Sequence record: PQ415074.1
Source: Pseudomonas phage Baskent_P6
Length of the DNA stretch: 64,000 bases
Direction: 5' to 3' (one strand)
Position 1 is the first letter of the stretch. Every line of letters starts with the position of its first letter. The notes beneath the pieces are model-generated. The model was not told where the DNA came from. It made no database searches and saw only the letters and a program-made list of their open reading frames with translations. This document shows, piece after piece, positions 36,401 through 63,424 of the stretch. The translations under genes and the position numbers were made by a program.

Positions 36401-38792
36401 GCAGATGCTCAAGGCAGGCATCGTCTGGACCGACGCTGAGCTGCGCGACATGTGGAAGCTCAACGATGCGCAGGTCGCGCTGTACCGCGAGTTCCGCGCC
36501 GCCACCGACCGTAGCCTGGACACCATGGCCCGCGCCGACATGCTGCGCTTCGGCGGCGAGGATGTGAAGGAACTGCGCGACCAGGTGATGGACGCGGCCG
36601 ATGCGCAGGAGGGGGCCGCGATACTGCGCGACCACCTGGCGCAGATGGCTGATGCATGGCCGGAACGCGCCACGAACCTGCTGAACCTGGCACACGGCAT
36701 GACGGATCGCGCCGAGAAGGTCGCCCAGTTGCAGGGCGAGGGCTATGCACCGCTGTCGCGCTTCGGCAAGTACACCGTGGATGTGGTGGACGCGAACGGC
36801 GAGCGCCAGTATTTCAGCCTGTTCGAGACCAAGCGCGAGGCGAACCTGATGGCCGAGCAGATGCGCGGCGCCTTCCCTGGCGCCACCGTCAGTCAGGGCA
36901 CGCTGTCCGAGGAAAGCTACAAGCTATTCGCCGGCATCACCCCGGAAACCCTGGAACTGTTCGGCAACGCCCTGGGCTTCGACTCGGAGGGCGACAGCGC
37001 CCGCGACCAGGCGTTCCAGGAATACCTGCGCCTGACCAAGACCAACCGTTCCGCGATGCGCCGGTTGATCCACCGCAAGGGCATCGCCGGCTACAGCGAG
37101 GACGTGGGCCGCGTGTTGGCATCGTTCATCTACTCCAACTCCCGGCAGACCGCCGCCGGCCTGCACATGGGCAACCTTTCCGAGGCTGTGAACGGCATCC
37201 CACAGGCGCAGGGCGAACTGAAGGACGCCGCGGTACGGCTGGCCGACTACATCAAGAACCCGCAAGAGGAGGGGCAGGCGGTGCGCGGACTGCTGTTTGC
37301 GCAGTACCTCGGCGGGTCCGTCGCGTCAGCCTTCGTCAACATGACCCAGCCGGTCCAAGTGACTTTTCCCTGGTTGAGTCAGTATTGCGGGGTGAAGCGC
37401 GCTGCGGCGGAACTGGGGCGGGCAGCACGACAGATGGCGCAGCGCTCCTATCAGTTCGAACCGGACCTGGCCCGGGCATTAAAGCGCGCAGAGGATGATG
37501 GGGTGGTGTCCCCGCAGGAGGTCCACCAGTTGATGGCGCAGGCCCGCGGCAGCGGCTCGCTGCGCGCCGGGGACGGGACGCGCTTGGGTGATGCTCGAGC
37601 ACTTGCGTCCAACAGCGTGGCGCGCCTGTCGATGGCCTGGGGCAAGTTGTTCGGCGCCGCAGAGCAGATCAACCGCCGCATGACTTACATCGCGTCGTAT
37701 CGCATCGCCAAAGCGCAGAACATGGCCAATCCTGACGAGTTCGCACGCCGGGCCGTGCGCGAGACGCAGTTCGTATACTCCAAGGCCAGCAAGATGCGCT
37801 GGGGGCGTGGTGCCGTCGGCGGCACCTTGATGACCTTCAAGACGTACAGCGTGGCCTATCTTGAGCTGATGCATCGCTTGTGGAATCAGGGTGAGCCTGG
37901 TTCGCAGGAGCGCAAGGACGGTCGGAAGGCTGCTGCCCTGATGATCGGCATGCTGCTGCTCGTCGGCGGCGCCGGTGGCTTGCCGTTCGCCGAAGACGCC
38001 GAAGACCTGATCGACGGTGCGGCGCAACTCATGGGCTACAACTTCTCTACCGCGAAGGCCAAACAGGAGTTTCTGGAAGGTCTGTTTGGTCGGGTGCTTG
38101 CCGACTTCATTGATCGCGGGGTGTCCGGACTGCCTGGTGCTCCGCTCGATGCCTCAGGCCGGCTGGGCATGGGGAACCTGATTCCTGGAACCCGGCTACT
38201 CCAGCCCGCCCCCGCGAATATTCGCGATGTGCTTGAAATAGCTGGCCCCATGGGGGACTTCGCGAATCGCATCCTTGAGGGCGGGAAAAAGATCGCCAGT
38301 GGCGACATCGGTAGCGGGTTGCTGGAAATATCCCCGGGGGCGGTACGAAACGCTGCCAAGGGTGTGGATATGCTCGCCACTGGGATGTACCGAGACACGA
38401 AGGGCTACAAGGTCTTGGATACCAACACGCTTGAGGCCGCGATGAAGATGATCGGTTTCCAGCCTGCCAGTGTGGCGACCATTCAGGAAGCCAACATGCT
38501 CAGTCAGAAGGCGAAGGCCTTCTACAACCTGAAGGCGCAAGAAATCCGCAGTATGTGGGCGGCCGGCATCTTCGAGAAAGACCAGGGCAAGGTTGAGCGC
38601 GCGCGGCAAGCAATAGCCGACTGGAATCGGCGCAACCCTGACCAGCCAATGGCCATCCGAGTGCCAGACATCATGCGACGAGTCCGCGAAATGTCGCTAT
38701 CGAAGGACGAACGGATAGCGAAGACCGCACCGAAAGCGATGCGGCAGCAGATGCGAGAGGATCTGGAGCGCACCCGCGCAGCGCTGGACTGA
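27444..38792 (+). CDS. Giant polyvalent virion protein (3782 aa) with ParB-like nuclease, N6-adenine methyltransferase, two HExxH zincin-like motifs and a PLxRFG-type motif
   Basis: Single uninterrupted ORF. ParB-like domain at about nt 29900..30240 (IPRADMPQIKAEHRG...ILVSREGNVLDGHHQWMAARDNGEEVRVIRLD). Gamma-class N6-adenine MTase at about 33320..33840 (FFPTSAAV; motif I VLEPSAGMGHM; motif IV NPPF at 33587..33598). HELQH at 34316..34330 and HEMVH at 34904..34918. YAPLSRFGKY at 36750..36767. Confidence 0.85.
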   Translation: MADTWGENDKIVDTADFGANDEVVGKGEEGRGVIGHARDLGLSVAKGVIGVPEAAVGLADIPTEGRVGKFLENQDGMLGFRPREAKDFLSDLHTDQYKQQQQDFQDADGVVDKTLHAVQNPSMVVNTVAESLPSMLAGGAVGRGVRALAPALAPVAAGAAGEGAVMAGQQAEQIRQETDDGLLTPAQSGAAVATGVLGSLFSLAGGSLAKKLGIGDADTLLAGGANPGQLVSELASMPAKSIPRKVIEGAISEGFLEELPQSASEQVLQNLALGRDWASGLDEAMVMGTLAGMAMGGPAAVLHGGQPAASRGLADADATFESTPGLEGQTETTAPLALPAPVYEAGSDGQVRTTVDQNSATQAQRQQEAERLDRIRRGEVTDVTPVPAAPKRSEQMGLDPAVGPLSGAAAQAVDSGATDQMVQQAALQQAAEEAQKSGRKGDQVNPETGEITAEQGDLLASDPVTDLQGRLEFVRRQARATGWDAKKIAERDRLQEELDKLAPAPDAGYMQRVGERVKRIEAAQSPDEIAAILAEDQQDEQRHQNAAGRVELAARARGFALDQAAQQQAPTPIGVQDDIQQAQGKADAQQAQAAQPAVSLAPAAESVPAAPATEAKATNLKDAISKVRQAKQKPEQPAALQAVRRGEVGGKLGSGEVVTTSSGRQTTPFPKVSVDSSRKATSTIKAVDQWLMQNALDEARSRGDEFNARQFEANLAKPQRADKDAAEEYLFGQQPAVQPRVLKPLAPKSTATDNSASWVIRNKETGEVIAETFDRKKVDALNTEKYEAVPIQQHLASLNKPKVPSIEGKDIGEGWAEFSKESGTVGIPRADMPQIKAEHRGAMVNFLSARGVQHQEETVPADTLKPTQAEFSRDKVAKAKDFEGGNRSILVSREGNVLDGHHQWMAARDNGEEVRVIRLDAPIRDLVKLAHEFPSSTTDASSGQGATVDARQVRPVPEPAAPDVPKKRPRGVLAKRFQAEAQARAEYFTPGNVVRGYGANYDRVISYNPTESGSWTVTVRSVRKEGDTWVDVPGESERTHMTAPDARDMKRGPAGRIATQGAPTTDEFPLKEAAASYSGISNSSSQRAKSDADEFQTYIDVARDAGAVVARTDAQQAAVEQATRELRADYLAQYRRLMNVRAGTYSGYVVGRSGLNSKQADRRNSAYDRAIDTFVAWQKANQDRVRQAALDARTDEEKAADRQAAEQARADKAQRKEDGDRSLMRRILSWKKGSEPVAITKAAHLAGVNFGKDGYPTSIKLTPTDGSVLTSDKFDLAALFRERGMSVPESKRRVRELVDFVRAEDAARPQSEPAEAPKPEPAQPSDSKTPTLDAHVALMQRARSGEATADEFRQAFERTQNARDALVAELGTMKKDDLLKSGGYSFFHRYRNEKKAAIVDALVGRVLEEFALGRSYGPSSYVMSAAGLEAHRQAKASALAELVANTTDDDIKAHAAEVAEAQQEVQARREAQQKAVANPQTLAEFRQAVSYNMETHGESLREAFMRLTPEQRIRYDELEAESTKALREQAKAQAKTRVASAGQTTAGDIIETKHTKHGHDLFVVQLAERVSREDYDTLNNSAKRLGGSYSSYRGNGAVPGFQFRTREAAEAFRKLVTGDTADAQAVAEARRDAFEDDRNQSAAQRLRTMAQALNERADDSLSRVRKQNTDRRARMAASAEASARADKALAATMNNLAAAIEGGKAKFLDTVRQKVQVEFLARELRNAKDAQIRAKYPTYGEQEKHRGEPVDAETVDYSTFPSYTAMRSDLASLARQMAEVDGLKKLAARLEKVADDVTEAYTGWAKQNLLSVSRFTRGDQFADFKSREDAERAIRRSGLTGKAIVLPVKRGQNRIVMAPSEAMKLGLWQGDGDKRITLSGEFGGELVQALGRRSGSKITVPWALESAHEKRKRLESMGILTGSEYRSALREFVALREAPAEPDKIKQMERAMIGRRNDGLDFFPTSAAVTEEAIDAADIQGGMDVLEPSAGMGHMADAIREQTGVEPEVVELSGERRELLEAKGYNLVGSDFMEVSGKQYDRIVMNPPFSKGRDIQHVQHAYSLLKPGGRLVAIMSEGAFFQSNKAAENFRAWLDGLGATSERLPEGSFMDPALSVNTGVNARMVVIDKPAAEESAAPQPGEQPPVQYSFTGRNAVGANLHALSTAQQRIAMGENAEAVRRDTGWHRGTDGKWRFEISDHQASIAVAGETAGAIIDMAHLNAINDERSRPTVGDVLSHPQLFAAYPDLQRIPVAVMPEGVTALARLRRFATGNQVEVQANMPRTEVASAILHELQHAIQIREGFAMGGSARAFVSNFDKTGAATYRRLAGEVEARNTQARLKMTPRLRRDIAPDESADIPASQVLVSFNGRDIENGPLPQNLTGRPPMTSHSLVRAFDLQFPALGQAVRKMLKRGKEGQRGGLVVIDSADPLRIAHTYARKSGTALSDAVQLFEDGERINGFYDARSGLTFLVGPNLNPVTAPAVVLHEMVHGQQRQNLDQAAHAMLMNRGNVRSAELRTFLDRVASRMIESGESRNMKEAAPYIVEQAVIEGREQGFAEADSRFLSWVDSALGKQVGDFLRRFLANIRQWMLRHGLPVGRISVDDLVRYAMAGVESAAEGRVRGDGLAMSQDDMRKARVLQGPPVAILEGNEAPQGFAAVREWAAKLFESQGGKAVNPDLGDVVLDMRAVRDSMAHGKANPYKFSAFAAVKDVLERGVVVHRADYEKGESFYVSAPVVIDDKDDIVTVLVRRDPNMQRMYLHSVATKEYLLNRRVSGADAMMAAQPSGSSSSGDVASVLQRLLTASLNEPEGPQFSRSGLRELTSKATAELNKTFSAPGGLSWWHKTIGTMYNLAERSPAFKPVFESAQGFIDDVSYYASDAADLAPKLLPKLETWRDIAKSPVGAEDNKAVAKPVFEGTLMWARDVDGKPVRVDSLAERAMRLTADEKADILLKQGKIPEGLLRAWRGLSPEQFAKMIDSRYESQMLKAGIVWTDAELRDMWKLNDAQVALYREFRAATDRSLDTMARADMLRFGGEDVKELRDQVMDAADAQEGAAILRDHLAQMADAWPERATNLLNLAHGMTDRAEKVAQLQGEGYAPLSRFGKYTVDVVDANGERQYFSLFETKREANLMAEQMRGAFPGATVSQGTLSEESYKLFAGITPETLELFGNALGFDSEGDSARDQAFQEYLRLTKTNRSAMRRLIHRKGIAGYSEDVGRVLASFIYSNSRQTAAGLHMGNLSEAVNGIPQAQGELKDAAVRLADYIKNPQEEGQAVRGLLFAQYLGGSVASAFVNMTQPVQVTFPWLSQYCGVKRAAAELGRAARQMAQRSYQFEPDLARALKRAEDDGVVSPQEVHQLMAQARGSGSLRAGDGTRLGDARALASNSVARLSMAWGKLFGAAEQINRRMTYIASYRIAKAQNMANPDEFARRAVRETQFVYSKASKMRWGRGAVGGTLMTFKTYSVAYLELMHRLWNQGEPGSQERKDGRKAAALMIGMLLLVGGAGGLPFAEDAEDLIDGAAQLMGYNFSTAKAKQEFLEGLFGRVLADFIDRGVSGLPGAPLDASGRLGMGNLIPGTRLLQPAPANIRDVLEIAGPMGDFANRILEGGKKIASGDIGSGLLEISPGAVRNAAKGVDMLATGMYRDTKGYKVLDTNTLEAAMKMIGFQPASVATIQEANMLSQKAKAFYNLKAQEIRSMWAAGIFEKDQGKVERARQAIADWNRRNPDQPMAIRVPDIMRRVREMSLSKDERIAKTAPKAMRQQMREDLERTRAALD

Positions 38793-42726: not shown

Positions 42727-43962
42727 ATGCCGCTCACGGATACTGCTGTCCGCCAGGCAAAAGCAGAAGCTAAAGACTACACCCTCGCCGACATTGACGG
42801 CCTCTCTCTCTTCGTTTCTCACAAGGGCACCAAAAGCTGGCACTTCCGCTTTTCGTTGAATGGCCAGCAGAAGCGAGTGTCGCTTGGGACGTATCCCGAG
42901 TTGAGCCTGCGTGATGCCCGGCAGCGCCGTGACGAGGCACGTTCGTTGGTGGCCCAAGGTATCGATCCGCGGGGGCAGCATCGAGCGGACCGGAAGACGG
43001 TCAGCGTCGAGGAGACGTTTCGACACGTGGCTGAACAGTGGCTGGAGTTGAAACAGGGGCGCTGGGCGGACGATAGCCGGAAAGGCAGCGCAAACCAGGC
43101 GCGCAGAGTACTGGACAATGACCTATACCCGGCCCTGGCGAACATGAAGTTTCGCGAAATTCACCGTCGTGACCTGGCTGCGGTTGTCGGAGCCATCGAG
43201 CGCCGGGGAGCGCTGCACGTCGCGGAGAAGGCGCGGAGTTGGTTACGCCAGATCTTCCGCGTTGGGATCGCGGCCGGATTACGAGAGGACAACCCTGCCT
43301 CGGACCTGGACATTCTGGCGAAAGAACAGCCGCCGACTGAGCACAATCCGATTCTTGCGCATGATGGCGAAGAGCTTCCAGCCCTTCTTGTGAGACTGCG
43401 GTCTTACCAAGGGTCCGAGATCACAAGGATCGCCGTTCGTCTGATGCTTCTGACCGCGGTACGTACGATTGAGCTTCGAAAGGCTGCGCCGGCAGACTTC
43501 GATCTAGAAAAGGGGATATGGACTGTCCCGCCCGGAAGGGTGAAGCAATTGCGCGGCAAGGTGCGCAAGGACGGGGAAGAGGTGCCTCCGTACATCGTGC
43601 CGCTGTCGCGGCAAGCGATTGAGGAGGTCAGGCGGTTGCTGCAGAAGACGGGAAAATACCCGTTCGCGTTCGCAGGTCGAAATGATCCGACGAAGATGAT
43701 GAGCGAGAACACCATCAACCAGGCGATCAAGCGCCTTGGGTTCGATGGGCTGCTGACTGGTCATGGGTTGCGAGGGACTTTCTCCACTGCGCTGCATGAA
43801 ATGGGCTACGACACGACGTTGATCGAGGGCCAGCTTTCCCATGCCGATCCCAACAAGACGCGGGCGGCATACAACCATGCCGCGCACGTTGAGCGTCGAA
43901 GGGCGATGATGCAAGACTGGGCTGATTATCTTGATCGGTTGGAGCAGGCTGCCCCGGAGTGA
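42727..43962 (+). CDS. int: Tyrosine integrase (P4-type, DUF4102-like N-terminal arm-binding domain)
   Basis: N-terminal LTDTAVRQAK...DGLSLFVSHKGTKSWHFRF (DUF4102 type); catalytic box R...HGLRGT...ER..HA...Y near the C-terminus. Confidence 0.9.
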   Translation: MPLTDTAVRQAKAEAKDYTLADIDGLSLFVSHKGTKSWHFRFSLNGQQKRVSLGTYPELSLRDARQRRDEARSLVAQGIDPRGQHRADRKTVSVEETFRHVAEQWLELKQGRWADDSRKGSANQARRVLDNDLYPALANMKFREIHRRDLAAVVGAIERRGALHVAEKARSWLRQIFRVGIAAGLREDNPASDLDILAKEQPPTEHNPILAHDGEELPALLVRLRSYQGSEITRIAVRLMLLTAVRTIELRKAAPADFDLEKGIWTVPPGRVKQLRGKVRKDGEEVPPYIVPLSRQAIEEVRRLLQKTGKYPFAFAGRNDPTKMMSENTINQAIKRLGFDGLLTGHGLRGTFSTALHEMGYDTTLIEGQLSHADPNKTRAAYNHAAHVERRRAMMQDWADYLDRLEQAAPE

Positions 43963-48233: not shown

Positions 48234-48529
48234 GTCGGTATCTCCGCAGGACCGGTGATGTGCTCCGCGTGCAGAGCGCGCATTCCCAGCCTGGCGCCCT
48301 TCGAATCCATCCAGCCGGGCAGCAGGGCGATTGCCTGGCAGGTGAGCAGCTTCTGCAGGTCGAGCCGCAGGTAGTCGGCCCACTCGAAGCCCGGAATCTC
48401 GCCGTGCTCGGCGGGGTTCTCGACCTGGTACCCGAGGCTGCGCAGGCGCGCGGCTTCGGCGTGGAACGCGGGGAAGTTGTGTTCCGGCAGGCCGGTCATG
48501 GGGCCGGCGAGGTAGATGCGCTGGGTCAT
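48230..48529 (-). CDS. DUF4406-like (nucleoside 2-deoxyribosyltransferase-like) protein
   Basis: MTQRIYLAGPMTGLPEHNFPAF...QAIALLPGWMDSKGARLGMRA matches the DUF4406 pattern; internal ATG of track ORF 48230..49096. Confidence 0.55.
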   Translation of the reverse strand: MTQRIYLAGPMTGLPEHNFPAFHAEAARLRSLGYQVENPAEHGEIPGFEWADYLRLDLQKLLTCQAIALLPGWMDSKGARLGMRALHAEHITGPAEIPT

Positions 48530-49392
48530 TCTCCGCGCGCCTCCTGAATATCGGCCTCGGTCAGGGTGTAACTGGTAACCCCGTCGACGAGATAGAAGTC
48601 CGGCGGGCAGTTCGCCCTGGCCCAGCCGCGCAGGAAGCTTCCCAGGTCGGCCATTGCTTCCTTGCTGGCCTGCGGCCAGTCGTCCACCCATTCCCCGGCA
48701 TCGCTGCAACTGGCGTTGTCGTTCATGCTGCTGATCAGGCTGTCCGGATCGACGAAGCCAGCGGGATCGAGGTAGCGCTTCGTTCCGAAGTACACGGTGG
48801 AGCCTGCCTGCAACTCGTCGTAGCTGGTGATGAGTTCTGAGAGATCCTCGTTGTGCCAGTCCTCTCCGTTGGCGCTCCAGGTGATTTCCCCTGACCGTGG
48901 ATCGCTGTAAGCGACGGCCGGAGCATCCCCAGTGCGGTCGTGCTCGATCGCCTTGTCGACTGGCACCGTGCGCCAGTCCGGCCAGGTGCGCGCCTCGTTC
49001 TTCGTCTGCTTGGCGACCAGGGCTTCGATGATCTGCGCGGGAGTGGCGCCGGTGCGCCAAGCCCCGTCCAGGGCCAGGATCACAACGTCGATCCACTCGG
49101 CCAGGTCGCCAGGGTTCTCCTCGATCTCGCGCAACTCCTTCCGGATGTGGTCGACGACGCCAGCGGCGCGCGACCCAGGCCCGAACGTGCGTTCGCTGAA
49201 ACGGCGCTGGCGCTCCAGGTGCAGGTCGAGACGGAACACGTCCAGCCGCCCGCGGGCGCGGCCAAGCGCGTAAGCCTCGTCCTGGAACATCAGGAGGTGA
49301 TCGCTGGTGCGTCCGGTCAGGACATTGAGATAGCGGCTGTGGAGCGCCTCAATTGCAAGATGATCGTCGGGGTGGTTCTGGTTCGTCGTCAT
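48526..49392 (-). CDS. MazG/DUF550-like nucleotide pyrophosphohydrolase with C-terminal extension
   Basis: DLAEWIDVVILALDGAWRTGATPAQIIEALVAKQTKNEARTWPD resembles phage MazG-like/DUF550 proteins; ATG 49392 (MTTNQNH). Confidence 0.5.
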   Translation of the reverse strand: MTTNQNHPDDHLAIEALHSRYLNVLTGRTSDHLLMFQDEAYALGRARGRLDVFRLDLHLERQRRFSERTFGPGSRAAGVVDHIRKELREIEENPGDLAEWIDVVILALDGAWRTGATPAQIIEALVAKQTKNEARTWPDWRTVPVDKAIEHDRTGDAPAVAYSDPRSGEITWSANGEDWHNEDLSELITSYDELQAGSTVYFGTKRYLDPAGFVDPDSLISSMNDNASCSDAGEWVDDWPQASKEAMADLGSFLRGWARANCPPDFYLVDGVTSYTLTEADIQEARGE

Positions 49393-49840
49393 GGCTGCAC
49401 CTGCTGCTGTGAGCGGTTCCAGGGATGCCGGCGCCCGGGCTTGGGCTGCTGGCGCGGGGTGATGAGGGCGTCGCGCAGGCTCATGCCGGCGGCGACGCGG
49501 CGGCGGACGGTCGTTGCGTGGACCGGGCTCTGGAAGTGCTCCACCAGCTCGGCGATGGTCCCGGTCACGCCGTCGACGGTGAAGCGTCGGCTCTCGCTCC
49601 AGCGTTCGTGCGCGCGCTCCAGCGCTGCGGCCTGCGCCGGCGTGCAGCGTCCGCGCTTCTGCTCGTTCGCACGCTGGTGGTCGGTTGAGCATCCGCGTGC
49701 TGGCCAGGTGATCTCCGGCATCAGGGTCAGCAGCTCTCGGAACTTCCAGGGGCCCATGCCGAGCGCGTGCATGGTGGCGCGCCGGGAAAGCCCGCGCGCG
49801 GCCGCGTTGCGAATGAACTGTTCGGTGTTCACGGGTTCAC
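49389..49840 (-). CDS. Hypothetical protein with C-terminal HTH-like segment; GTG start assumed
   Basis: TTVRRRVAAGMSLRDAL; start ambiguous. Confidence 0.35.
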
Positions 49841-51637
49841 CTCCTGTTGCGCGACGCTCAACCCCACCGCTACCTGCCGCACCCAGATCGGCGTATTGCT
49901 GAGCATGAAGGTTTCGCCGGCCTCGGCCAGCAGCAGCGTTGTACCCATCACGCCGGCGATGGCCTCGGCCGCGGCCGGCGGTACGGCGTTGCCGATGCGC
50001 TCGCGCCAGTCGCTGTCGCTCAGGCCGTCGAGGATCAACTGTTCTTCCGGGTCCACCAGGCTCTGCAGCGCGGCCAACTCCAGGGTGGTGAAGGGCCGGT
50101 GCCAAGTGCCGTCCAGCGACTGGATGATGCAGGTGAGCCGGTCGTTCGCCGTCGGCATGCGCGGGTCGGCGACGCTCCACCGGCCATTGTCGTGCCGCGC
50201 GCTGGCGGATACTGCGCCGGCGGACTGGTCGAACCCGACGACACCGTAGTGCCCGCCGGTCAGGTAGGCGTCGCCCTTGGTGCGATCGAGCACGCGCGGA
50301 TCAGCGATCGACAGCGCGCCGCTGGCCACCTGCTGGGAGCCGGTGACCGTGCCGGTAGCGCTTCCCCACTCGCCGACGTGCAATTTGCGGCTGCTCGCCC
50401 CTGGGTGCCAGTTGTGGTACCTGGGATCGGCAACAGCCTGGCCTCCGGAACTGGGTGAGTGCCCGCCGGTGACGGTTCCGGCGTGGCTCCCCATGCTGAC
50501 GACGCGAAACACGTTGTTGTGCCGGACGCCGCCTGGGCGCGGGTCGGCGACGCTGAATGTGCCTTGGCCTGGCATCGTTTGCCCTGGGATAGTCGGCGCT
50601 GATTCGGCCCAGCGGATCACCCCGAACTGCTGGCCGTGGTTCCAGTTTGCGGCTTGGCGGTAGCGAGGATCGGCTACCGAAAATGCGCCGTTGGTAGGGC
50701 CGGAGCGGCCGGCGATAGTGCTGGCAGTGTCGTCCCACCCATGCACCCCCATGTAGCCGGAGCGGTACTCCGGCACGATTACCAGGTCGCGCAGGTGGCC
50801 GTCCTCGATCGCCAGCTTGTTCAGGCTCCGCCAGTCGCTGCCGGCCTCTACCAAGGCCAGGCGCACCCAGGTCTTCCAGTGCAGCGATGGGATGCGGTGC
50901 ATTGGCCCCGCGGCATCGATGTCGCCCGGCAGCGGCATGCGGCCGAGGATGTCGCCGACGGCGCGCAGGCTCTTCTTCTCTGGCTCGTACAGGAAGGGGG
51001 GCACTTTTTCGACGTGCCGCGCGACAAGCAGGAAGCGCTTCCGGGACTGCGCCAGGCCGCCGAGTTCGCCGCAGTCGTGAGTGGTTTCCGCCACTGCGTA
51101 GCCGAAGCCGCCGAGCAGGCTATTGATCTGGTCCAGCAGGTGCCGGCCGCGGCTGGCAAGGCGTGGGACGTTCTCGAAGACGATCAGCGGTACCGGGTCA
51201 TCAGCCCATGCCTCGCCCATCAGCCAGATGCAGCGCAGCGTCAACTCGTTCAGCGCCTGGTACTTTGGAGTCAGGCTCATCTTCTCCGACAGCAGGCCGC
51301 TGGCGCCTTTGCAGGGCGAGCTGATGAACACGGCATCCGGCCGGCGCCCGCCGGCGGCGCGACGAATATCCTCCGGAGTCGCCTCCCGCCAACCGGCGGG
51401 CGGCTCCTTTCCATGGAAGCGGATGTATTGGTCGCGGGTGAACAGGTCCAGCAGGGTACCCGGGACACCGGCCAGGCGCTCGAAGTCGCGCAGGCCGGCC
51501 GGGTCCACGTCGATCCCGCCGAGGCAGACCCATTCAGCCTCGACGTTGCCGACCCGCGGGCGCGCCCGGTTGAAACCGGCGGCGCCGCCGCCCAGGCCGC
51601 AGCAGAAGTGGAAGTGGTACAGAGTGCGCTTGATCAT
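49829..51637 (-). CDS. DNA (cytosine-5)-methyltransferase with about 340-aa variable region holding five ADPR-containing repeats
   Basis: Motif I FCCGLGGG, IV SSPCKGAS, VI FENV, VIII QSRKR, X GNAVPP. Repeats FSVADPRY.., FSVADPRPG.., AVADPRYH.., LSIADPRVL.., WSVADPRMP.. between motifs VIII and IX (about nt 50080..50690). Confidence 0.8.
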   Translation of the reverse strand: MIKRTLYHFHFCCGLGGGAAGFNRARPRVGNVEAEWVCLGGIDVDPAGLRDFERLAGVPGTLLDLFTRDQYIRFHGKEPPAGWREATPEDIRRAAGGRRPDAVFISSPCKGASGLLSEKMSLTPKYQALNELTLRCIWLMGEAWADDPVPLIVFENVPRLASRGRHLLDQINSLLGGFGYAVAETTHDCGELGGLAQSRKRFLLVARHVEKVPPFLYEPEKKSLRAVGDILGRMPLPGDIDAAGPMHRIPSLHWKTWVRLALVEAGSDWRSLNKLAIEDGHLRDLVIVPEYRSGYMGVHGWDDTASTIAGRSGPTNGAFSVADPRYRQAANWNHGQQFGVIRWAESAPTIPGQTMPGQGTFSVADPRPGGVRHNNVFRVVSMGSHAGTVTGGHSPSSGGQAVADPRYHNWHPGASSRKLHVGEWGSATGTVTGSQQVASGALSIADPRVLDRTKGDAYLTGGHYGVVGFDQSAGAVSASARHDNGRWSVADPRMPTANDRLTCIIQSLDGTWHRPFTTLELAALQSLVDPEEQLILDGLSDSDWRERIGNAVPPAAAEAIAGVMGTTLLLAEAGETFMLSNTPIWVRQVAVGLSVAQQEVNP

Positions 51638-54264
51638 GCGGCGGGTTCCTTATGGATAATGTCGGCCTCGGCCTCGAGCAGGGCGAACAGGTCGGGCATG
51701 GCCATCTCTTCCTCGGCAGACTTGCAATAGCCGGCACCGTCCAGGAAGTAGCGGGAGTTCAGTTCGTGGGCGCGGGCTCTGCGCTTGAGCTTCAGCGCGC
51801 AGTACGGGACGGTCATGATCCCGCCGAAGGGATCGAAGACCAGGTCTCCTTCCATGGAGTACTGCACGATGGCCCGGTCGACGATGTCGAACTGCAGCGG
51901 GCACAGGTGCATTTCCTGGCCCTTGCTGTACTGCTGGGCGTTGAGCGTCCGCATGCGGGCGACGTCGGTCCATACGTCCGGGTGCCAGGACTGCGGTGGC
52001 AGCAGCATGAAGCCGGTGGGCAGCTTCCCGGTGACCTCCAGCGATTCGCCGATGCGGACGTGGTGCTCGAAGTCGTAGACGGTGGACAGGCTGTAGTCGC
52101 GGTACAGCTTGAACATCACGTCGTGCGGAATGCCTTCGAAGTCCGCTTCAGTCAGCGGACGGTTGCCGTTGCTGCGGGTGAAGCCGTGGGCGTCCAACTG
52201 CCAGCGTGCCCGGCTGTAGCCGTTGCCGCGGGTGACGGTGAGCTTCTTGTCCATGGCGAAGGGGACGATCTGGCCGTCTTCGTCGATGCACAGGGGCTTG
52301 GCCTTGACCACCGGAATGTCGCCGTAGGCGTTGGAGTTGTCGGTGGGGGGCTTGCGGAAGATCAGCAGGTACTCGGGCATGCCGACACCCATCTTGGTGC
52401 CGTCCTTGCACTGTTCCGTCCACGAGAGGCGGTAGGTCTGGGCGTTCTCGCGAACCACGTCGGTGACGATGGTCTTCATGCCCATATAGGCCCAGCCATG
52501 CTTGACGAAGGCTCGAGTCACTTCCATGTGGAAGGGGTAGACGGTCTGGAAGCCAAGGCCGGTCATTCCGCCGGGAATGATGCGATCCTTCACGTGGATG
52601 CAGGCCAGACGCCCGGGGATGGTCACGCGCAGCAGTTCCGGGATCAGATAGTCCATCTGCTCGAAGAAGTGCGCGTTGTCGTCGGTGTGGCCGAAGTCGG
52701 CGTAGTTCGGCGAGTACTCGTACTGGGTGCTGAAGGGGATGCTGGTGATGGTCAAGCCGACGCTGTTGCTTTCCATGCGGCAGGTTTCGAGCACGGTGTC
52801 GTTGTTGACGATGGTGTAGTCCTTGCCCTTGATCTCGACGCGCTCCACGCCCATGGAGCGGGTGAGGGTCTGTGCCATGGCGGCCACGGACAGGCCGTAC
52901 TGCTTGATGATCTCGGTCATGCGCTGAACCATGGTGTTGTGCTGCTGCCACTTCCGTTCGAGTTGGCGGCGGATGTCGCGCTCGGCCTCGGTATAGATCA
53001 GGTCGATGCGCACACGGCCTGTCTGCAGGAATCGGTGCAGGCGGTGAATGGACTGGATGAAGTCGTTGAACTTGAAGCCGATGCCCAGGTAGATGGCCCA
53101 CGAGCAGTGGCGCTGGAAGTTGCAGCCGCTGCCTGCGATCACTGGTTTGGCAGCCAGTTCCTGGAACTCGCCGTCGCTGAACTGGACAATCGCGCGCTCG
53201 CGCTCCTCCAGATCCTGGGCGCCGTAGACGCTGATGGCGGTGGGGATAGCGGCCTCGATCGCGTGGCGTTCCGCCTCGAGGTCATGCCAGATGATCCGGT
53301 GAGCATCTGGAGCCTCGGCCCGGATCTCCATCAGTTTGGCGATCCGGGCAGGAAGGCTCTCGCGCTTCTCTGCGGCGGCGTCCTGCACGCCAATGGCGGT
53401 GTTGCGAAGCAGGCGGCCCTGGCCGTTACGCTCATGGCCAGCGTGCGAGTGGTCGGACGGTACTTCGTGCCAGCGGATGTCCAGTTCCGGTAGCGCGTAG
53501 CCTTCGTCGCTGAACCCGAGGTCGCTGGGGCGCTGAACGAAGATCGCCCAGGATGCCACCCACATCCAGAACTCGCCCTCTTTGTGGGCATGGATGGTGA
53601 GTTGGTCGGCCTTCTCAGAGTTGCGTTTGAAGAACCTGGTCTTGGCCTGGCCGACATCCATCACGCCGAGGAAGGCCGAGTAAGCCAGTAGCTCGATGTA
53701 TTCGTTCGGGCTTGGCGTGGCAGTGGCCACGTACCGGTACCGGACGCCATCGCCGCGGACGCCGGCGGCGCGATCGTCACCAGCGAACAGAGCCATGAAC
53801 TCGCGGAACGTCTTGCTGCCGCCGAAGCCGCGAAGGCAACTGGCTTCGTCCAGGCTTGCCACGCTGAACCGGCGAGGGTCGAGCTTGCCGTCGCGGACGG
53901 TCTCGTAATTGGTCAGGTAGATGGTGGCGGGGTCGTCTACCTCGTCGAAACTGCGGATGAACCGGACGGTGATGCCGAGCATCGCGGCGTCGCGGTAGAA
54001 CTCCTGGCGCACACCCAGCGGAATGGTGATGAGAGCGTAGCCGCCGGCTAGGTCGCGGGTGACGCGCACCACCTCAAGCTGCATTACCGACTTGCCCAGG
54101 CCGAAGGCCGCGAAACAGGCCGCGCGGCCTTGGCGCACCAGCCAGGTGGCGATGGCGCGCTGGTGCGGCTTGAGCAGGGGGTTGAAGGCCGAGGGCTCCA
54201 CTTCGAAGCCTTTCGGCTCGGCGAGGCGGACCTTCGCTCGCAAGAAGTCTTCATAGGCGGTCAT
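51634..54264 (-). CDS. SF2 helicase fused to a beta-class N6/N4 DNA methyltransferase domain
   Basis: Helicase motif I AAFGLGKS, II LDEAS, III TATPSPN, VI QSIHRLHRF (nt about 54120..52980). C-terminal MTase motif IFRKPPTD then FDPFGGIMTVPYCA (nt about 52350..51800). ATGA-coupled to the C5-MTase gene. Confidence 0.75.
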   Translation of the reverse strand: MTAYEDFLRAKVRLAEPKGFEVEPSAFNPLLKPHQRAIATWLVRQGRAACFAAFGLGKSVMQLEVVRVTRDLAGGYALITIPLGVRQEFYRDAAMLGITVRFIRSFDEVDDPATIYLTNYETVRDGKLDPRRFSVASLDEASCLRGFGGSKTFREFMALFAGDDRAAGVRGDGVRYRYVATATPSPNEYIELLAYSAFLGVMDVGQAKTRFFKRNSEKADQLTIHAHKEGEFWMWVASWAIFVQRPSDLGFSDEGYALPELDIRWHEVPSDHSHAGHERNGQGRLLRNTAIGVQDAAAEKRESLPARIAKLMEIRAEAPDAHRIIWHDLEAERHAIEAAIPTAISVYGAQDLEERERAIVQFSDGEFQELAAKPVIAGSGCNFQRHCSWAIYLGIGFKFNDFIQSIHRLHRFLQTGRVRIDLIYTEAERDIRRQLERKWQQHNTMVQRMTEIIKQYGLSVAAMAQTLTRSMGVERVEIKGKDYTIVNNDTVLETCRMESNSVGLTITSIPFSTQYEYSPNYADFGHTDDNAHFFEQMDYLIPELLRVTIPGRLACIHVKDRIIPGGMTGLGFQTVYPFHMEVTRAFVKHGWAYMGMKTIVTDVVRENAQTYRLSWTEQCKDGTKMGVGMPEYLLIFRKPPTDNSNAYGDIPVVKAKPLCIDEDGQIVPFAMDKKLTVTRGNGYSRARWQLDAHGFTRSNGNRPLTEADFEGIPHDVMFKLYRDYSLSTVYDFEHHVRIGESLEVTGKLPTGFMLLPPQSWHPDVWTDVARMRTLNAQQYSKGQEMHLCPLQFDIVDRAIVQYSMEGDLVFDPFGGIMTVPYCALKLKRRARAHELNSRYFLDGAGYCKSAEEEMAMPDLFALLEAEADIIHKEPAA

Positions 54265-54532
54265 GCTGTTTCCTTGAGGAACGGCACGCACCGGACGCCG
54301 CCCTGCCTGACAGGGCGGCCCACGAGGCATGGTTGAATCGCCCACAGGGCGGCGTCCGGTGCGTGCTGGAAGAGAAAGCGCCCCGGGTGGGGCGCTGTAT
54401 CGAGGGTCAGGTCGCAGCCTGGAGCTGGTGACCACGACCTAGAGGAATAAACTGAGCTTGAAATGCAGATCGATTGCCCTAAAACTCGATGGTGAAGTCA
54501 CGGTGCTATTACTTGACCAACTAGGGGGATCT

Positions 54533-54847
54533 ATGCCTATCAAGATGAATCTGTCTGGCCTGAAGCGTCTGCAGCAAAACCTCAAACAACTCGATGGCAC
54601 GCATCAAGTGCCGTTTAGCGAGATCATGAGTCCCAGCTTTATTTCGTCTAACAGCAAGTTTGCGAATTTCGACGAGTTTGCTCGTGGTGCCGGTTATAAG
54701 GTTGAAACTGCGGAAGATCTACGGGCGATTCCAGACGAGCCATGGGACGCTTATGTCCGTAGTGAGACTCCTTTCGAGAGTTGGGCAGAAATGCTCAAGG
54801 CCGGCATAGTCGCGCATGCCAAGCGCTCACTTCAAAAGGGGTTGTAA
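54533..54847 (+). CDS. Hypothetical 104-aa protein on a low-GC moron, opposite in orientation to the early operon
   Basis: RBS aactagggggatct before ATG 54533. Local GC about 48%. Followed by hairpin at 54900..54926. Confidence 0.5.
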   Translation: MPIKMNLSGLKRLQQNLKQLDGTHQVPFSEIMSPSFISSNSKFANFDEFARGAGYKVETAEDLRAIPDEPWDAYVRSETPFESWAEMLKAGIVAHAKRSLQKGL

Positions 54848-54899
54848 CTCGCCGTCTCTACTGAAACCGAATGCTGCACGTGTGGCCTTTCTCCGCCCA

Positions 54900-54952: not shown

Positions 54953-56173
54953 TCACGACAGAACCTCGCGAGATCCGTCTCCCTTCATCGGCCCGACGAT
55001 ATCCAGCAATTCCATTTCCTCGACCAGGCGGGCCGCGCGGTTGTAGCCGATCTTGAGTTTGCGTTGGATGGCGGAGATCGAAGCGCGGCGCGTCTCGTGG
55101 ACGAAGCGGATAGCCTCCTTCAGCAGCGGGTCGTCACCGGGCCCGTTGGCCTGGGGGATATGGAGGGTCGCGGTGATACCGTCGCGCATCCCTAGCGCCT
55201 TGGTTACGTCGATGCCGGCGCCAGGCGCTGGCTCGGGCTCATCGTACGCACCGTCGATTCCCTGCGGGAACTCTTCGCCGCCCAAGGCCTCCAGCAGTTG
55301 CGGTATGAACTCGCGGAAGGTGAGCATCATCAGGACGAAGCTGGCGTCGAGCTGGCCGGCGGCATCGTCGCCGCCGTCCTTCTCAGCCTGCTCCTGCAGC
55401 AGGTCGTCGAAGCGCAGGCGCTTGATCGCCAGCTTGGTGTCGAGCACGAAGCTGAGCTTGTCCGACCAGGCCAGGGCCACCTGGGTGACCAGCTTCCCGG
55501 AGGACAGGTGTAACTGCATTTCCTCGCTGGTCATGTCCTGGCGGGTGGCCACGACCTTGCCGCCGTCCTCGTGGGTGTCGGCGAGTACCGCGCTGTCCAG
55601 CACGTGGAAGTCGCCGCCGGCGGCCTGGTCCTTCATCCAGTCGGTGAGGGTTGCACTGGGCGCGACCTTCACGCTGAGCGGGCGTACCGGCAGCGAGCCC
55701 AGGGCTTCGCGCAGGGTGGACAGTAGGTCCTCGGCCTTCTTTGCGCTGTTGGTGTCGATCAGCACCAGGCCTTGCTCAAGGTCCAGCGCGGCGAACGTGC
55801 TGGACTTGCGAATGAAAGCCCGTGGCAGCAGCGTCTGGACGATCTCGTCCTTGAGCTGGTCGCGCTCCTTCTTGAACACCTTGCGCATCTGGTCGGTTTC
55901 GATTTGCTCGACCTTCTCGGCCAGTTCGTCGCGCACTACGCTGCCGGGCAGCAGGCGCTCCTGCTTTCGGGTGGAGATGAGCAGGAAGCCGCGGCTGGCG
56001 TGCACCAGCGGTGCGTTCGGGCCCTTGCCGAACGGAGCGGCGAAGCCGTAGGTGGTCAGTTCCTGGCTTTCGCAGGGGCGTGCCGGCTTGCTGGCCAGGG
56101 CCTGCTCCAGCGCCGCGGCGTCGATTTGCAGGTCTTGGGTGAGGCGGTAGATTTGCAGGTTGCGGAACCACAT
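54953..56173 (-). CDS. rdgC: RdgC recombination-associated protein fused to a C-terminal FtsK-gamma (KOPS-binding winged-helix) domain
   Basis: N-terminus [11 protein letters not shown]... and length track E. coli RdgC over about 300 aa. Extra C-terminal about 60 aa [58 protein letters not shown] closely matches the FtsK gamma domain (nt about 54953..55135). Confidence 0.8.
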
Positions 56174-62560: not shown

Positions 62561-63346
62561 TCAGTGCTTCCTACGTCTGAGTACCGACCACCAGAATACC
62601 CAGCCCATGATGCTGAGGTTGTTCTCGCGCATCTGGTCCTTGGTGTACTCCTCGTCTGGGTATTCGTCACGGTTAAAACTGCGTAGGCGGATGCCACCAC
62701 CAGGCAATCGGTAGACGAACTTCACCCGTAGCATGTCATCGTGTTTCAACGCATAAATCTCGCCATCGATTATCGTATGGGCGGATAGGTCAACCCCGAT
62801 GATGGCGCCATCGGCAATCAGAGGCTCCATGCTGTTGCCACTGACATTCACGCAGACCGAATGTTTTGGATCCACCCCCGACTCGCGCAGACCAGCCTTC
62901 GCGAACCTGATTTTTTGCTTGGCCTGCTCACGGTCGGGATAGCGACCGTCCCCCGCGGCGATTTGGATCTCGTCGAAGTACGGTATTTCAACCTCATCCG
63001 GGTCGAGCGGGTCCCCCACCTCGAAACTGGACATGGGCGTAAGTTCGCCCTCTGTCTCCGCTTTAGGCGCCGGCCGGAGAGTCTTCGCCATATCCGTTAT
63101 TTCGTCCGCTAGGCGCGGACTGAACTCCCGAACATGAACCTGGAGAATTTCTGCGAATGCCGCCGCTGCCTGGGCGTTCAAAGGGTTCACGCCATTCAGG
63201 TAGTGGCTAACGGAGCTTTGGTTGATCCCAAGGAGGTGGGCGAGCTTCTCCTGCGTTAGACCGAGGTCACGCTTTCTGCTGTTGAAGATGGCCTTCAGTT
63301 GAAGGCACTCGTCTTTTCTGTCTGGTGGAAGAGGTTTTTTGCTCAT
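62561..63346 (-). CDS. cI: CI-like repressor (N-terminal HTH, C-terminal S24 LexA-like autopeptidase domain)
   Basis: HTH LGLTQEKLAHLLGINQSSVSHYLNG; C-terminal GNSMEPLIADGAIIGVD...K (Ser/Lys dyad context). Start MSKKPLPP inside track ORF 62561..63382. Confidence 0.85.
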   Translation of the reverse strand: MSKKPLPPDRKDECLQLKAIFNSRKRDLGLTQEKLAHLLGINQSSVSHYLNGVNPLNAQAAAAFAEILQVHVREFSPRLADEITDMAKTLRPAPKAETEGELTPMSSFEVGDPLDPDEVEIPYFDEIQIAAGDGRYPDREQAKQKIRFAKAGLRESGVDPKHSVCVNVSGNSMEPLIADGAIIGVDLSAHTIIDGEIYALKHDDMLRVKFVYRLPGGGIRLRSFNRDEYPDEEYTKDQMRENNLSIMGWVFWWSVLRRRKH

Positions 63347-63362
63347 CTTCGAATCGTATTCC

Positions 63363-63424
63363 CACAGGTAATATTTCAGCAAATGCCTATAGCATTGAAA
63401 TGTTTAAATGCCACAGGTAATATT
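63363..63424. promoter_or_regulatory. OR-like operators: two exact copies of CACAGGTAATATT (63363..63375, 63412..63424) in the cI/cro intergenic region
   Basis: tcccacaggtaatatttc and tgccacaggtaatattct read directly. Confidence 0.6.

Follow-up and report, generated by a model that had tools for sequence, protein, structure and literature searches.

That mobile elements couple Snf2-family ATPases to DNA methyltransferases is already known: such pairs were described in 2017 and were proposed to serve counter-restriction (Iyer et al. 2017, PMC5512222). In the dyad typified by DarB of phage P1, an LPD36 domain is followed by a gamma-class, EcoKI/TaqI-like adenine methyltransferase carrying NPP(Y/F) and then by a Snf2-like helicase, and the dyad sits in large polyvalent proteins that are delivered with the DNA (PMC5512222). 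We analyzed 64,000 nucleotides of Pseudomonas phage Baskent_P6 (PQ415074.1; "the window" hereafter denotes this whole stretch), in which a minus-strand open reading frame (ORF) at 51634..54264 encodes an 876-residue protein that a first-pass annotation had placed with P1 DarB. The protein joins a Snf2-family ATPase to a beta-class amino-methyltransferase and, by its sequence and domain layout, is not of the DarB type. On balance we favor reading it as an early-expressed Snf2 translocase and amino-methyltransferase, the product probably being N4-methylcytosine (m4C), that would form a self-protective methylation module with a multi-module C5-cytosine methyltransferase.

The likeness to P1 DarB lies in the coupling of a Snf2-family ATPase to a DNA amino-methyltransferase within a mobile element; the architecture does not follow. 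P1 DarB is a 2255-residue component of the virion head encoded among the late genes, whereas the Baskent_P6 gene lies in the early-left operon. Pfam placed the methyltransferase of DarB (N6_Mtase, PF02384, and Eco57I, residues 145-290) ahead of its helicase (SNF2-rel/Helicase_C, residues 833-1517); in the fusion protein the helicase (residues 30-420) precedes the methyltransferase (residues 500-845), which is of the beta rather than the gamma class. BLASTP detected no similarity between the 876-residue protein and P1 DarB (best E = 2), Pfam found no LPD domain on the query, and the query did not match PHROG 10089 ('DarB-like antirestriction'). Unlike the polyvalent methylase-helicase dyad, the query family is almost absent from plasmids (11 of 72,556 records, several of them phage-sized replicons).

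Other described systems resemble parts of the fusion protein. Members of the phage 'DNA helicase/methylase' family (PHROG 16, phi297 gp10, the vB_Pae_CF24a product, Cheoctovirus gp63-type proteins) have the same domain order, linker length and motifs and show no structural difference; within this family the query belongs to a sub-clade with S-I-P-F in motif IV and a long variable region. Beta-class methyltransferases (TTHA0409/2zie, N4CMT, M.PvuII, M.MboIIA, CcrM, Type III Mod) share its circularly permuted order (motifs IV-VIII, variable region, X, I) and its catalytic and S-adenosylmethionine (SAM)-binding residues, but they carry no Snf2 fusion and act as dimers. Type III Mod works with the helicase-nuclease Res; the query has no nuclease domain and no ResIII or Type III match in Pfam or PADLOC, and its motor is of the Snf2 type. 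In eukaryotes, Snf2 ATPases are coupled to DNA methylation either in one polypeptide, as in DNMT5 with its fused Snf2 domain, or as partners, as in DDM1/HELLS. The query motor has DDM1 and HELLS among its closest structural matches, but these systems use C5 methyltransferases on chromatin and the fusions are evolutionarily unrelated, so the comparison is one of analogy only. By description, M.EcoGIX and M.BceJIII can also be likened to the fusion protein, being orphan methyltransferases of mobile elements that are active at DNA entry or replication, have relaxed specificity and block restriction; they are plasmid-borne and single-strand-specific, are associated with PolI and produce N6-methyladenine (m6A), and no Snf2 domain is mentioned in the paper (PMC7736820). 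A review of beta-class methyltransferases does not treat Snf2 fusions (PMC7544214).

A Snf2-family motor is fused to a beta-class methyltransferase

The ORF is a real gene, as the first-pass annotation had supposed. It matched PHROG 16 ('DNA helicase') at E 1.1e-131 over residues 4-875, a full-length match with shared architecture, and more than 8000 proteins in a 90%-clustered database; at the level of representative clusters (50% identity), 4106 matched at E <= 0.001 and 877 at E <= 1e-30. On these similarities a chance ORF is excluded. The features of the gene are as follows.

51634..54264, minus strand: coding sequence of the Snf2 ATPase/beta-class methyltransferase fusion (ORF, PHROG 16, PF01555, 100% identity to the vB_Pae_CF24a protein)
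53005..54177, minus strand: Snf2-family ATPase core, residues ~30-420 (invariant columns, profile against the Protein Data Bank (PDB), Foldseek)
within 53005..54177, minus strand: motor motifs I GLGKS (54088..54102), II DEAS, III TATP and VI QSIHRLHRFLQ
52765..53004, minus strand: linker, residues ~421-500, a long helix and a small beta unit (AlphaFold2 secondary structure, segment lengths)
52345..52764, minus strand: catalytic half of the methyltransferase, motifs IV-VIII (alignment to 2zie, segment length)
52732..52743, minus strand: motif IV, S508-I509-P510-F511 (aligned to TSPPY of PDB 2zie)
51973..52344, minus strand: variable region from motif VIII to W765, residues ~641-764, presumed target-recognition domain (length variation, low model confidence)
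51730..51972, minus strand: SAM-binding half, H786-x-C-P-L-Q then motif I FDPFGG (aligned to 2zie, N4CMT 8s9n and M.MboIIA)

Helicase motifs I, II, III and VI, which the first-pass annotation had quoted, are all present and fall on columns that are invariant in 53 homologues: G55, G57 and K58 of G55-L-G57-K58-S, D139 and E140 of D139-E140-A-S, T183 and P184 of T181-A-T183-P184, and Q404, R408 and R411 of motif VI. A family profile built from the alignment of these 53 sequences (members 29-71% identical) was searched against the PDB, where its N-terminal half found SsoRad54 (1z63) at 3e-23 and also INO80, ISWI, DDM1, Snf2, Mot1 and CSB. AlphaFold2 modeled the 876-residue protein with a mean predicted local distance difference test score (pLDDT) of 84.6 and a predicted template modeling score of 0.77, and the top 50 PDB matches of this model in Foldseek were all Snf2-family ATPases, among them Mot1, CSB and RapA (E down to 8e-17). 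The motor thus combines motifs I, II, III and VI with Snf2-type inserts and fold, which places it in the Snf2/Rad54 group and narrows the earlier assignment to helicase superfamily 2 (SF2). Snf2-family ATPases translocate on duplex DNA rather than unwind it, and by analogy the motor would be expected to act as a double-stranded DNA translocase and not as an unwinding helicase.

A linker with pLDDT mostly between 83 and 93, dropping to 75 over residues 461-470, leads into the methyltransferase, which occupies residues ~500-845. Its identity as a beta-class N6/N4 enzyme, also proposed earlier, holds: PF01555 matched residues 504-840 with 35.1 bits, above the gathering cut-off of 26.7, and the motifs run in the order IV-VIII, target-recognition domain, X-I, with motif IV N-terminal of motif I (FDPFGG, residues 810-815). 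The C-terminal half of the family profile found 2zie in the PDB at 9e-31, together with M.MboIIA and the N4-cytosine enzyme N4CMT (8s9n). In the alignment, T507-S-I-P-F511 of the query stands opposite TSPPY of 2zie, which fixes motif IV at S508-I-P-F511; the 'PPT' that the first-pass annotation had taken for the catalytic motif lies at residues 639-641, after motif VIII (LLIFRK), and is not catalytic. Conservation follows the catalytic and SAM-binding residues. Over the 53 homologues, motif IV has Ser in 53/53 at its first position, then P (34), I (12), W (3), V (3) or T (1) at position 509, P510 in 52/53 and F511 in 53/53, while H786 and G815 are invariant and F813 is present in 52/53. The Ile variant is common to a large clade that includes actinobacteriophage homologues. 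Because Ile stands at position 509 in 12 of the 53 sequences, Ile509 of the query reads as a clade character and not as a lesion.

Known N4-cytosine enzymes begin motif IV with Ser, and the invariant Ser of the family matches the SPPY of N4CMT. Since this Ser is invariant, we predict that the target base is probably cytosine N4, with N6-adenine the less favored possibility. The PDB ranking does not separate m4C from m6A, 2zie being uncharacterized and M.MboIIA and N4CMT scoring similarly. NCBIfam returned only a sub-threshold match, to a YhdJ-like adenine methyltransferase over motif I, which is uninformative on base specificity. In N4CMT, the place modeled for the target N4 is contacted by the hydroxyl of the Ser and by the first Pro through its main-chain carbonyl; in both N4CMT and CcrM the residue that follows the Ser or Asp touches the target amino group through its main-chain carbonyl, and the side-chain contact comes from the Ser, or from the Asp of adenine enzymes (PMC10406627). 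Because the contact of the first Pro in N4CMT runs through the main chain, the change to Ile at position 509 would be tolerable.

Segment lengths differ sharply between the variable region and the rest. Across the 53 full-length members the motor spans 337-403 residues and the linker 86-98 (~95 in the query), and the catalytic segment from motif IV to VIII is 126 residues long in most; the variable region is likewise 126 residues in the query but ranges from 24 to 194 in the set, and AlphaFold2 modeled it with the least confidence (pLDDT 48-78). The picture is one of a fixed chassis that carries a diversifying target-recognition region. Since only the variable region changes so much while linker and catalytic lengths stay near-constant, we would expect an enzyme that diversifies its specificity.

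The fusion protein belongs to a phage-specific family

Neither the protein nor its architecture is new: the exact protein is in GenBank, and the architecture is annotated in hundreds of phages. The query and the vB_Pae_CF24a product, which is labeled 'SNF2 family superfamily II DNA/RNA helicase', are the same protein in sequence (100% identity); gp10 of phi297, an unrelated temperate phage, is 99.4% identical and carries the label 'putative DNA methylase N-4/N-6 domain protein'. Identity is ~50% to proteins of mycobacteriophages and Arthrobacter phages and 29-41% to those of Flavobacterium phages. Matches were found in 323 of 50,697 phage records, 294 of the 323 covering at least 80% of the query, and in at least 599 stretches of IMG/VR. 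Set against the plasmid count given above, these numbers show the family to be phage-specific. A role in conjugative elements was also considered, and was rejected on the nearly empty plasmid search.

The two halves are not always joined. Helicase and methylase are split but adjacent in Moonbeam (gp65/gp66) and S-LBS1 (A50/A49), and some homologues are interrupted by inteins (Hint_2, LAGLIDADG_3), as in P0047, P0074 and mycobacteriophages Doug, Minnie, Job42 and Veteran. Labels across the family are inconsistent ('helicase', 'methylase', 'restriction endonuclease', 'hypothetical', and 'DNA helicase/methylase' in actinobacteriophages). Some intein-bearing genes are mis-annotated 'anaerobic ribonucleoside reductase large subunit', and the homologue in Pseudanabaena phage Pan5 is labeled 'restriction endonuclease'.

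Long C5 methyltransferases recur beside the fusion gene

Immediately downstream of the fusion gene lies the gene for a C5-cytosine methyltransferase, whose ATG overlaps the TGA of the fusion gene.

49829..51637, minus strand: 602-residue C5-cytosine methyltransferase, 'type A', whose variable region holds five repeated modules (PF00145; PHROG 116, E 1.5e-59)
51634..51637, minus strand: ATGA stop/start overlap between the fusion gene and this downstream gene (sequence)

We surveyed the neighbors of the fusion gene by calling and clustering ORFs in 80 IMG/VR loci, which were 47-98% identical and included flanks of up to 7 kb. With shadow ORFs inside the fusion gene set aside, the only neighbor found in more than about a dozen of the 80 loci was a long C5 methyltransferase; SSB, DnaB, RecT, YqaJ, DUF1351 and DUF5131 each occurred in 12 or fewer. 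A C5 enzyme of at least 300 residues lay within 7 kb in 29/80 loci (a raw count) and in 20 of the 43 loci having at least 6 kb of flank on both sides. All 29 C5 genes were on the strand of the fusion gene, 15 upstream and 14 downstream; 13 of the 29 were within 150 nt of it, and nine of these 13 close pairs overlapped by 4 nt. The neighboring C5 enzymes fall into three sequence-unrelated types, and the pairing extends to Comamonas and Paraburkholderia prophages. The family-level link of the fusion protein to C5 METHYLTRANSFERASES is therefore real, and we found no prior description of this recurrent pairing with long multi-module C5 methyltransferases.

The overlap itself is a poorer guide. 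The first-pass annotation had correctly noted the ATGA junction and had read it as translational coupling to the C5 gene; the overlap stands, but its special meaning does not. The next two junctions in the window overlap as well (GTGA at 49829-49832 and ATGA at about 49389), as do most junctions in the F1Pa annotation. Because nearby junctions all overlap, this is the default packing of the operon and offers no specific argument for functional coupling, and we rejected it as such a sign. The ATGA is kept in phi297, F1Pa and PA8 despite a different downstream gene. What follows it varies among relatives: the type A enzyme in the window; in PA8 a sequence that starts alike, although only a 265-residue protein is annotated; in phage P52 a 664-residue 'type B' C5 enzyme unrelated to type A in sequence; and in F1Pa a 129-residue type B remnant, with the same start in phi297. 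D14I annotates a C-5 methylase adjoining the fusion gene.

The variable region of the window's C5 enzyme (50153..50740, minus strand) contains five ~42-residue repeats, each ending in [SA][VI]ADPR (residues 320, 362, 401, 443 and 488). Homologues of 528-695 residues have 3-6 copies of the repeat, and the type B enzyme of phage P52 (L010:1510-3504) has seven repeats of the form '[DE]xP[LM]xT[IV]'. These repeats look like arrays of target-recognition modules and suggest multispecific C5 methyltransferases.

A 53.8-kb 'plasmid' of Rhodoplanes serenus (L098, 3992..7180) carries a helicase, a 298-residue C5 enzyme and a beta methyltransferase as three consecutive overlapping genes, so that the module is split and its C5 gene stands between the other two. 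VRR-NUC, a Sak4-like ATPase, DUF669 and a second DEAD-box helicase lie beside it, and the replicon looks like a phage or phage-plasmid.

Within the fusion gene, a 613-residue antisense ORF runs at 51652..53493 on the plus strand. Equivalent shadow ORFs were present in 75/80 related loci, arising purely from coding-frame conservation in GC-rich DNA. Their recurrence is a caution for any ORF-based reading of this window.

Operon position and accessory status

The region shares 99.4% identity with vB_Pae_CF24a and related Pseudomonas phages, which are F116-like podoviruses (genus Hollowayvirus). Two genes mark the limits of the leftward gene string, and a hairpin lies ahead of the fusion gene.

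62561..63382, minus strand: cI-type repressor with helix-turn-helix and S24 peptidase domains, at the head of the leftward early operon (Pfam; F1Pa and D14I annotations)
42727..43962, plus strand: tyrosine integrase
54377..54396, minus strand: hairpin, GC-rich and with a weak T tract, that precedes the start codon (terminator-like scan)

Between the repressor and the integrase, the leftward genes encode an exonuclease, DUF1351, a DnaQ-like exonuclease, SSB, an RdgC-FtsK-gamma fusion, the Snf2-methyltransferase fusion, the C5 enzyme and small proteins. By synteny with lambdoid phages this string corresponds to an early-left operon, and its genes would be expressed early. The fusion gene is accessory within the genus: it was found in 22 Pseudomonas phage records as against 37 with the giant 3782-residue gene described below, and because LKA5 (Hollowayvirus) is without it, the gene is dispensable there. 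At the corresponding site LKA5 has two unrelated plus-strand ORFs, and it retains the C5 methyltransferase.

The start of the fusion gene is the ATG at 54264, which has a Shine-Dalgarno-like 'aagga' 5' of it. A GTG-initiated alternative would extend the ORF to 54435 and cross the hairpin at 54396..54377. Given the 'aagga' at the ATG, the hairpin inside the extension and the homologues, whose first residue corresponds to the same start and in which Y4 is invariant, the longer GTG version is unlikely.

Similarity to the closest phages ends at the hairpin, the megablast match to CF24a stopping at 54396. A low-GC island at 54400..54850 (49-51% against ~65%) is not in the closest phages; its plus-strand ORF at 54458..54847 aligns with PHROG 2211, a family of unknown function, over the C-terminal quarter alone and would, from that partial match, be a gene remnant or moron. 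The gene at 54953..56173 (minus strand) encodes recombination-associated RdgC fused to a C-terminal FtsK-gamma winged helix; at the equivalent position phi297 has a separate FtsK-gamma protein adjoining a Rad50-like ATPase. Downstream of the C5 gene in the same operon, the minus-strand genes at 48526..49392 and 49389..49832 encode an F116p08-like protein (PHROG 3190, unknown function) and a dATP/dGTP pyrophosphohydrolase (PF04447) protein, all three junctions of this stretch being 4-nt overlaps.

DarB-like features lie in a late-region protein

The DarB-like signature in the window belongs to another gene.

27444..38792, plus strand: polyvalent virion-type protein of 3782 residues with a gamma-class NPPF methyltransferase domain (LPD23, LPD3 and MTS by Pfam)

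This ORF lies in the late region. It matches PHROG 10089 at E 4e-36 through its C-terminal third, and the NPPF segment of its methyltransferase domain (residues ~1980-2110) aligns to the P1 DarB methyltransferase at E 0.011. Because Pfam shows no Snf2 domain in it (E <= 0.001), the ORF is best classed, on its domain content, as a polyvalent relative rather than a strict DarB orthologue. It is the ORF with DarB-like features that the first-pass annotation had called the virion methyltransferase. The count of three methylating activities given there agrees with the three methyltransferase domains encoded, namely the gamma-class NPPF domain of this ORF, the beta-class domain of the fusion protein and the C5 enzyme.

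Proposed function and alternative readings

We propose the following course of events. Since the gene lies in the leftward early operon, the fusion protein would be made early, on infection or induction. Its Snf2 motor would carry the enzyme along phage DNA undergoing replication or recombination, and the methyltransferase domain would modify exocyclic amino groups, likely at cytosine N4. The partner in the module would be the long multi-module C5-cytosine methyltransferase, the most conserved neighbor, with which the fusion protein may cooperate physically. Progeny DNA, and possibly the replicating pool, would thereby be protected from restriction in the present host and the next, an anti-restriction role that is plausible from the gene's makeup and setting. 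Several related elements carry their own DnaB or another SF2/Snf2 helicase; because these other helicases are present in the same elements, the fused motor is argued to be dedicated to the methyltransferase(s) and not to serve as a replication helicase.

A number of observations weigh against this proposal. Pfam detected no helicase in the query, only the methyltransferase, and its SNF2 model gave a weak match on a single homologue (P0212); the helicase half was demonstrated by PHROGs, the family profile against the PDB and the fold search instead. Domain scanning, the check suggested in the first-pass annotation, thus recovered the methyltransferase by Pfam and the helicase by PHROGs and the family profile. 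The query has S-I-P-F where the family consensus is S-P-P-F and the canonical PF01555 tetrapeptide is (S/D)PP(Y/F), and the rule that ties Ser to N4-cytosine is a correlation only. A protein synthesized only once infection has begun comes too late to shield the genome that first enters the cell. Recombination and replication genes always surround the gene, a setting that fits a role in DNA metabolism too. A literature search aimed at the family found no methyltransferase or ATPase activity, target sequence or phenotype for any member, and the authors of a Paracoccus virome paper left the Pthi1 homologue out of their methyltransferase count.

A more ambitious version of the proposal, which we consider unlikely though worth stating, makes the Snf2 motor a shared ATP-driven processivity engine for the fused m4C domain and the neighboring C5 enzyme, giving dense multi-site cytosine methylation of replicating phage DNA. 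If true, it would be a viral counterpart of the eukaryotic Snf2-dependent methylation of DNMT5 and DDM1, and a broad-spectrum restriction shield in GC-rich hosts.

Somewhat less probable still is that the fusion protein is an enzyme of DNA metabolism whose methylation serves regulation rather than protection. The motor would then act in recombination or replication, by branch migration or protein displacement, and the marks that the methyltransferase leaves on replicated DNA would serve timing, packaging or strand discrimination, much as Dam methylation acts at the P1 pac site. The gene does lie in recombination modules everywhere examined, with RdgC, SSB and the DnaQ-like exonuclease in the window, a RecA-like protein and HNH beside it in Cheoctovirus, RecT and YqaJ in prophages, and VRR-NUC, the Sak4-like ATPase and DUF669 in Rhodoplanes. 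Yet the strongest linkage is to a second methyltransferase and not to a recombinase, LKA5 is viable without the accessory fusion gene, and other helicases occur in the same elements. The eight-fold range in the length of the variable region also suggests diversifying specificity rather than a fixed regulatory site.

We give very little credence to the idea that S-I-P-F marks a dead methyltransferase, retained as a DNA- or SAM-binding module of a Snf2 remodeler whose task would be to clear host proteins off phage DNA. In the query clade another residue does stand in place of the first Pro of motif IV, and the Pfam score of 35 bits is modest. Against this, motif IV keeps its Ser, Phe and second Pro across the 53 sequences, as do motif I its residues and the SAM-binding half its H786; a large clade has the Ile variant in common; and in N4CMT and CcrM the residue equivalent to position 509 touches the substrate with its main chain (PMC10406627).

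Equally improbable is a prophage defense or exclusion component of the BREX/DISARM type, which would methylate resident DNA so that a partner effector attacks unmethylated invaders; the first-pass annotation had raised a BREX/DISARM-like identity as an outcome that would overturn its own view. PADLOC did report a weak match to DrmD, the DISARM Snf2 helicase, at E 0.0017 over 136 residues, and HNH endonuclease genes abut some homologues. The other PADLOC matches were to generic type II or orphan methyltransferases, however, no DrmA, DrmB, DrmC or PglZ-like genes occurred among the neighbors in the window and the 80 loci, where the only conserved neighbors are C5 methyltransferases, and the operon containing the gene is under repression in the lysogen.

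Least credible of all is anti-restriction of the DarB type, in which the protein would travel in the virion, enter the cell together with the DNA and work in cis on the genome it arrives with. DarB, the archetype of such pairs, has both broad domain types in common with the fusion protein, but sequence, domain order and methyltransferase class differ as described above, the Pfam scan shows no LPD domain, the PHROG 'DarB-like' profile matches the late-region ORF and not the query, and the query gene is in a cI-proximal early-left operon.

Significance

For annotation, the corrective value of this analysis is that the DarB analogy should be dropped for the fusion protein; the polyvalent protein that scores as DarB-like is the 3782-residue ORF. 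The most interesting leads are the module of helicase, beta methyltransferase and C5 enzyme and the multi-repeat variable regions of the C5 enzymes.

The family spans hundreds of cultured phages, including those of Pseudomonas, Mycobacterium, Arthrobacter, Flavobacterium and cyanobacteria. Establishing whether methylation requires the motor, and which base it affects at which sites, would account for a widespread accessory module of temperate phages and would be relevant to the host range of phage therapy candidates, F116-like phages being studied for P. aeruginosa.

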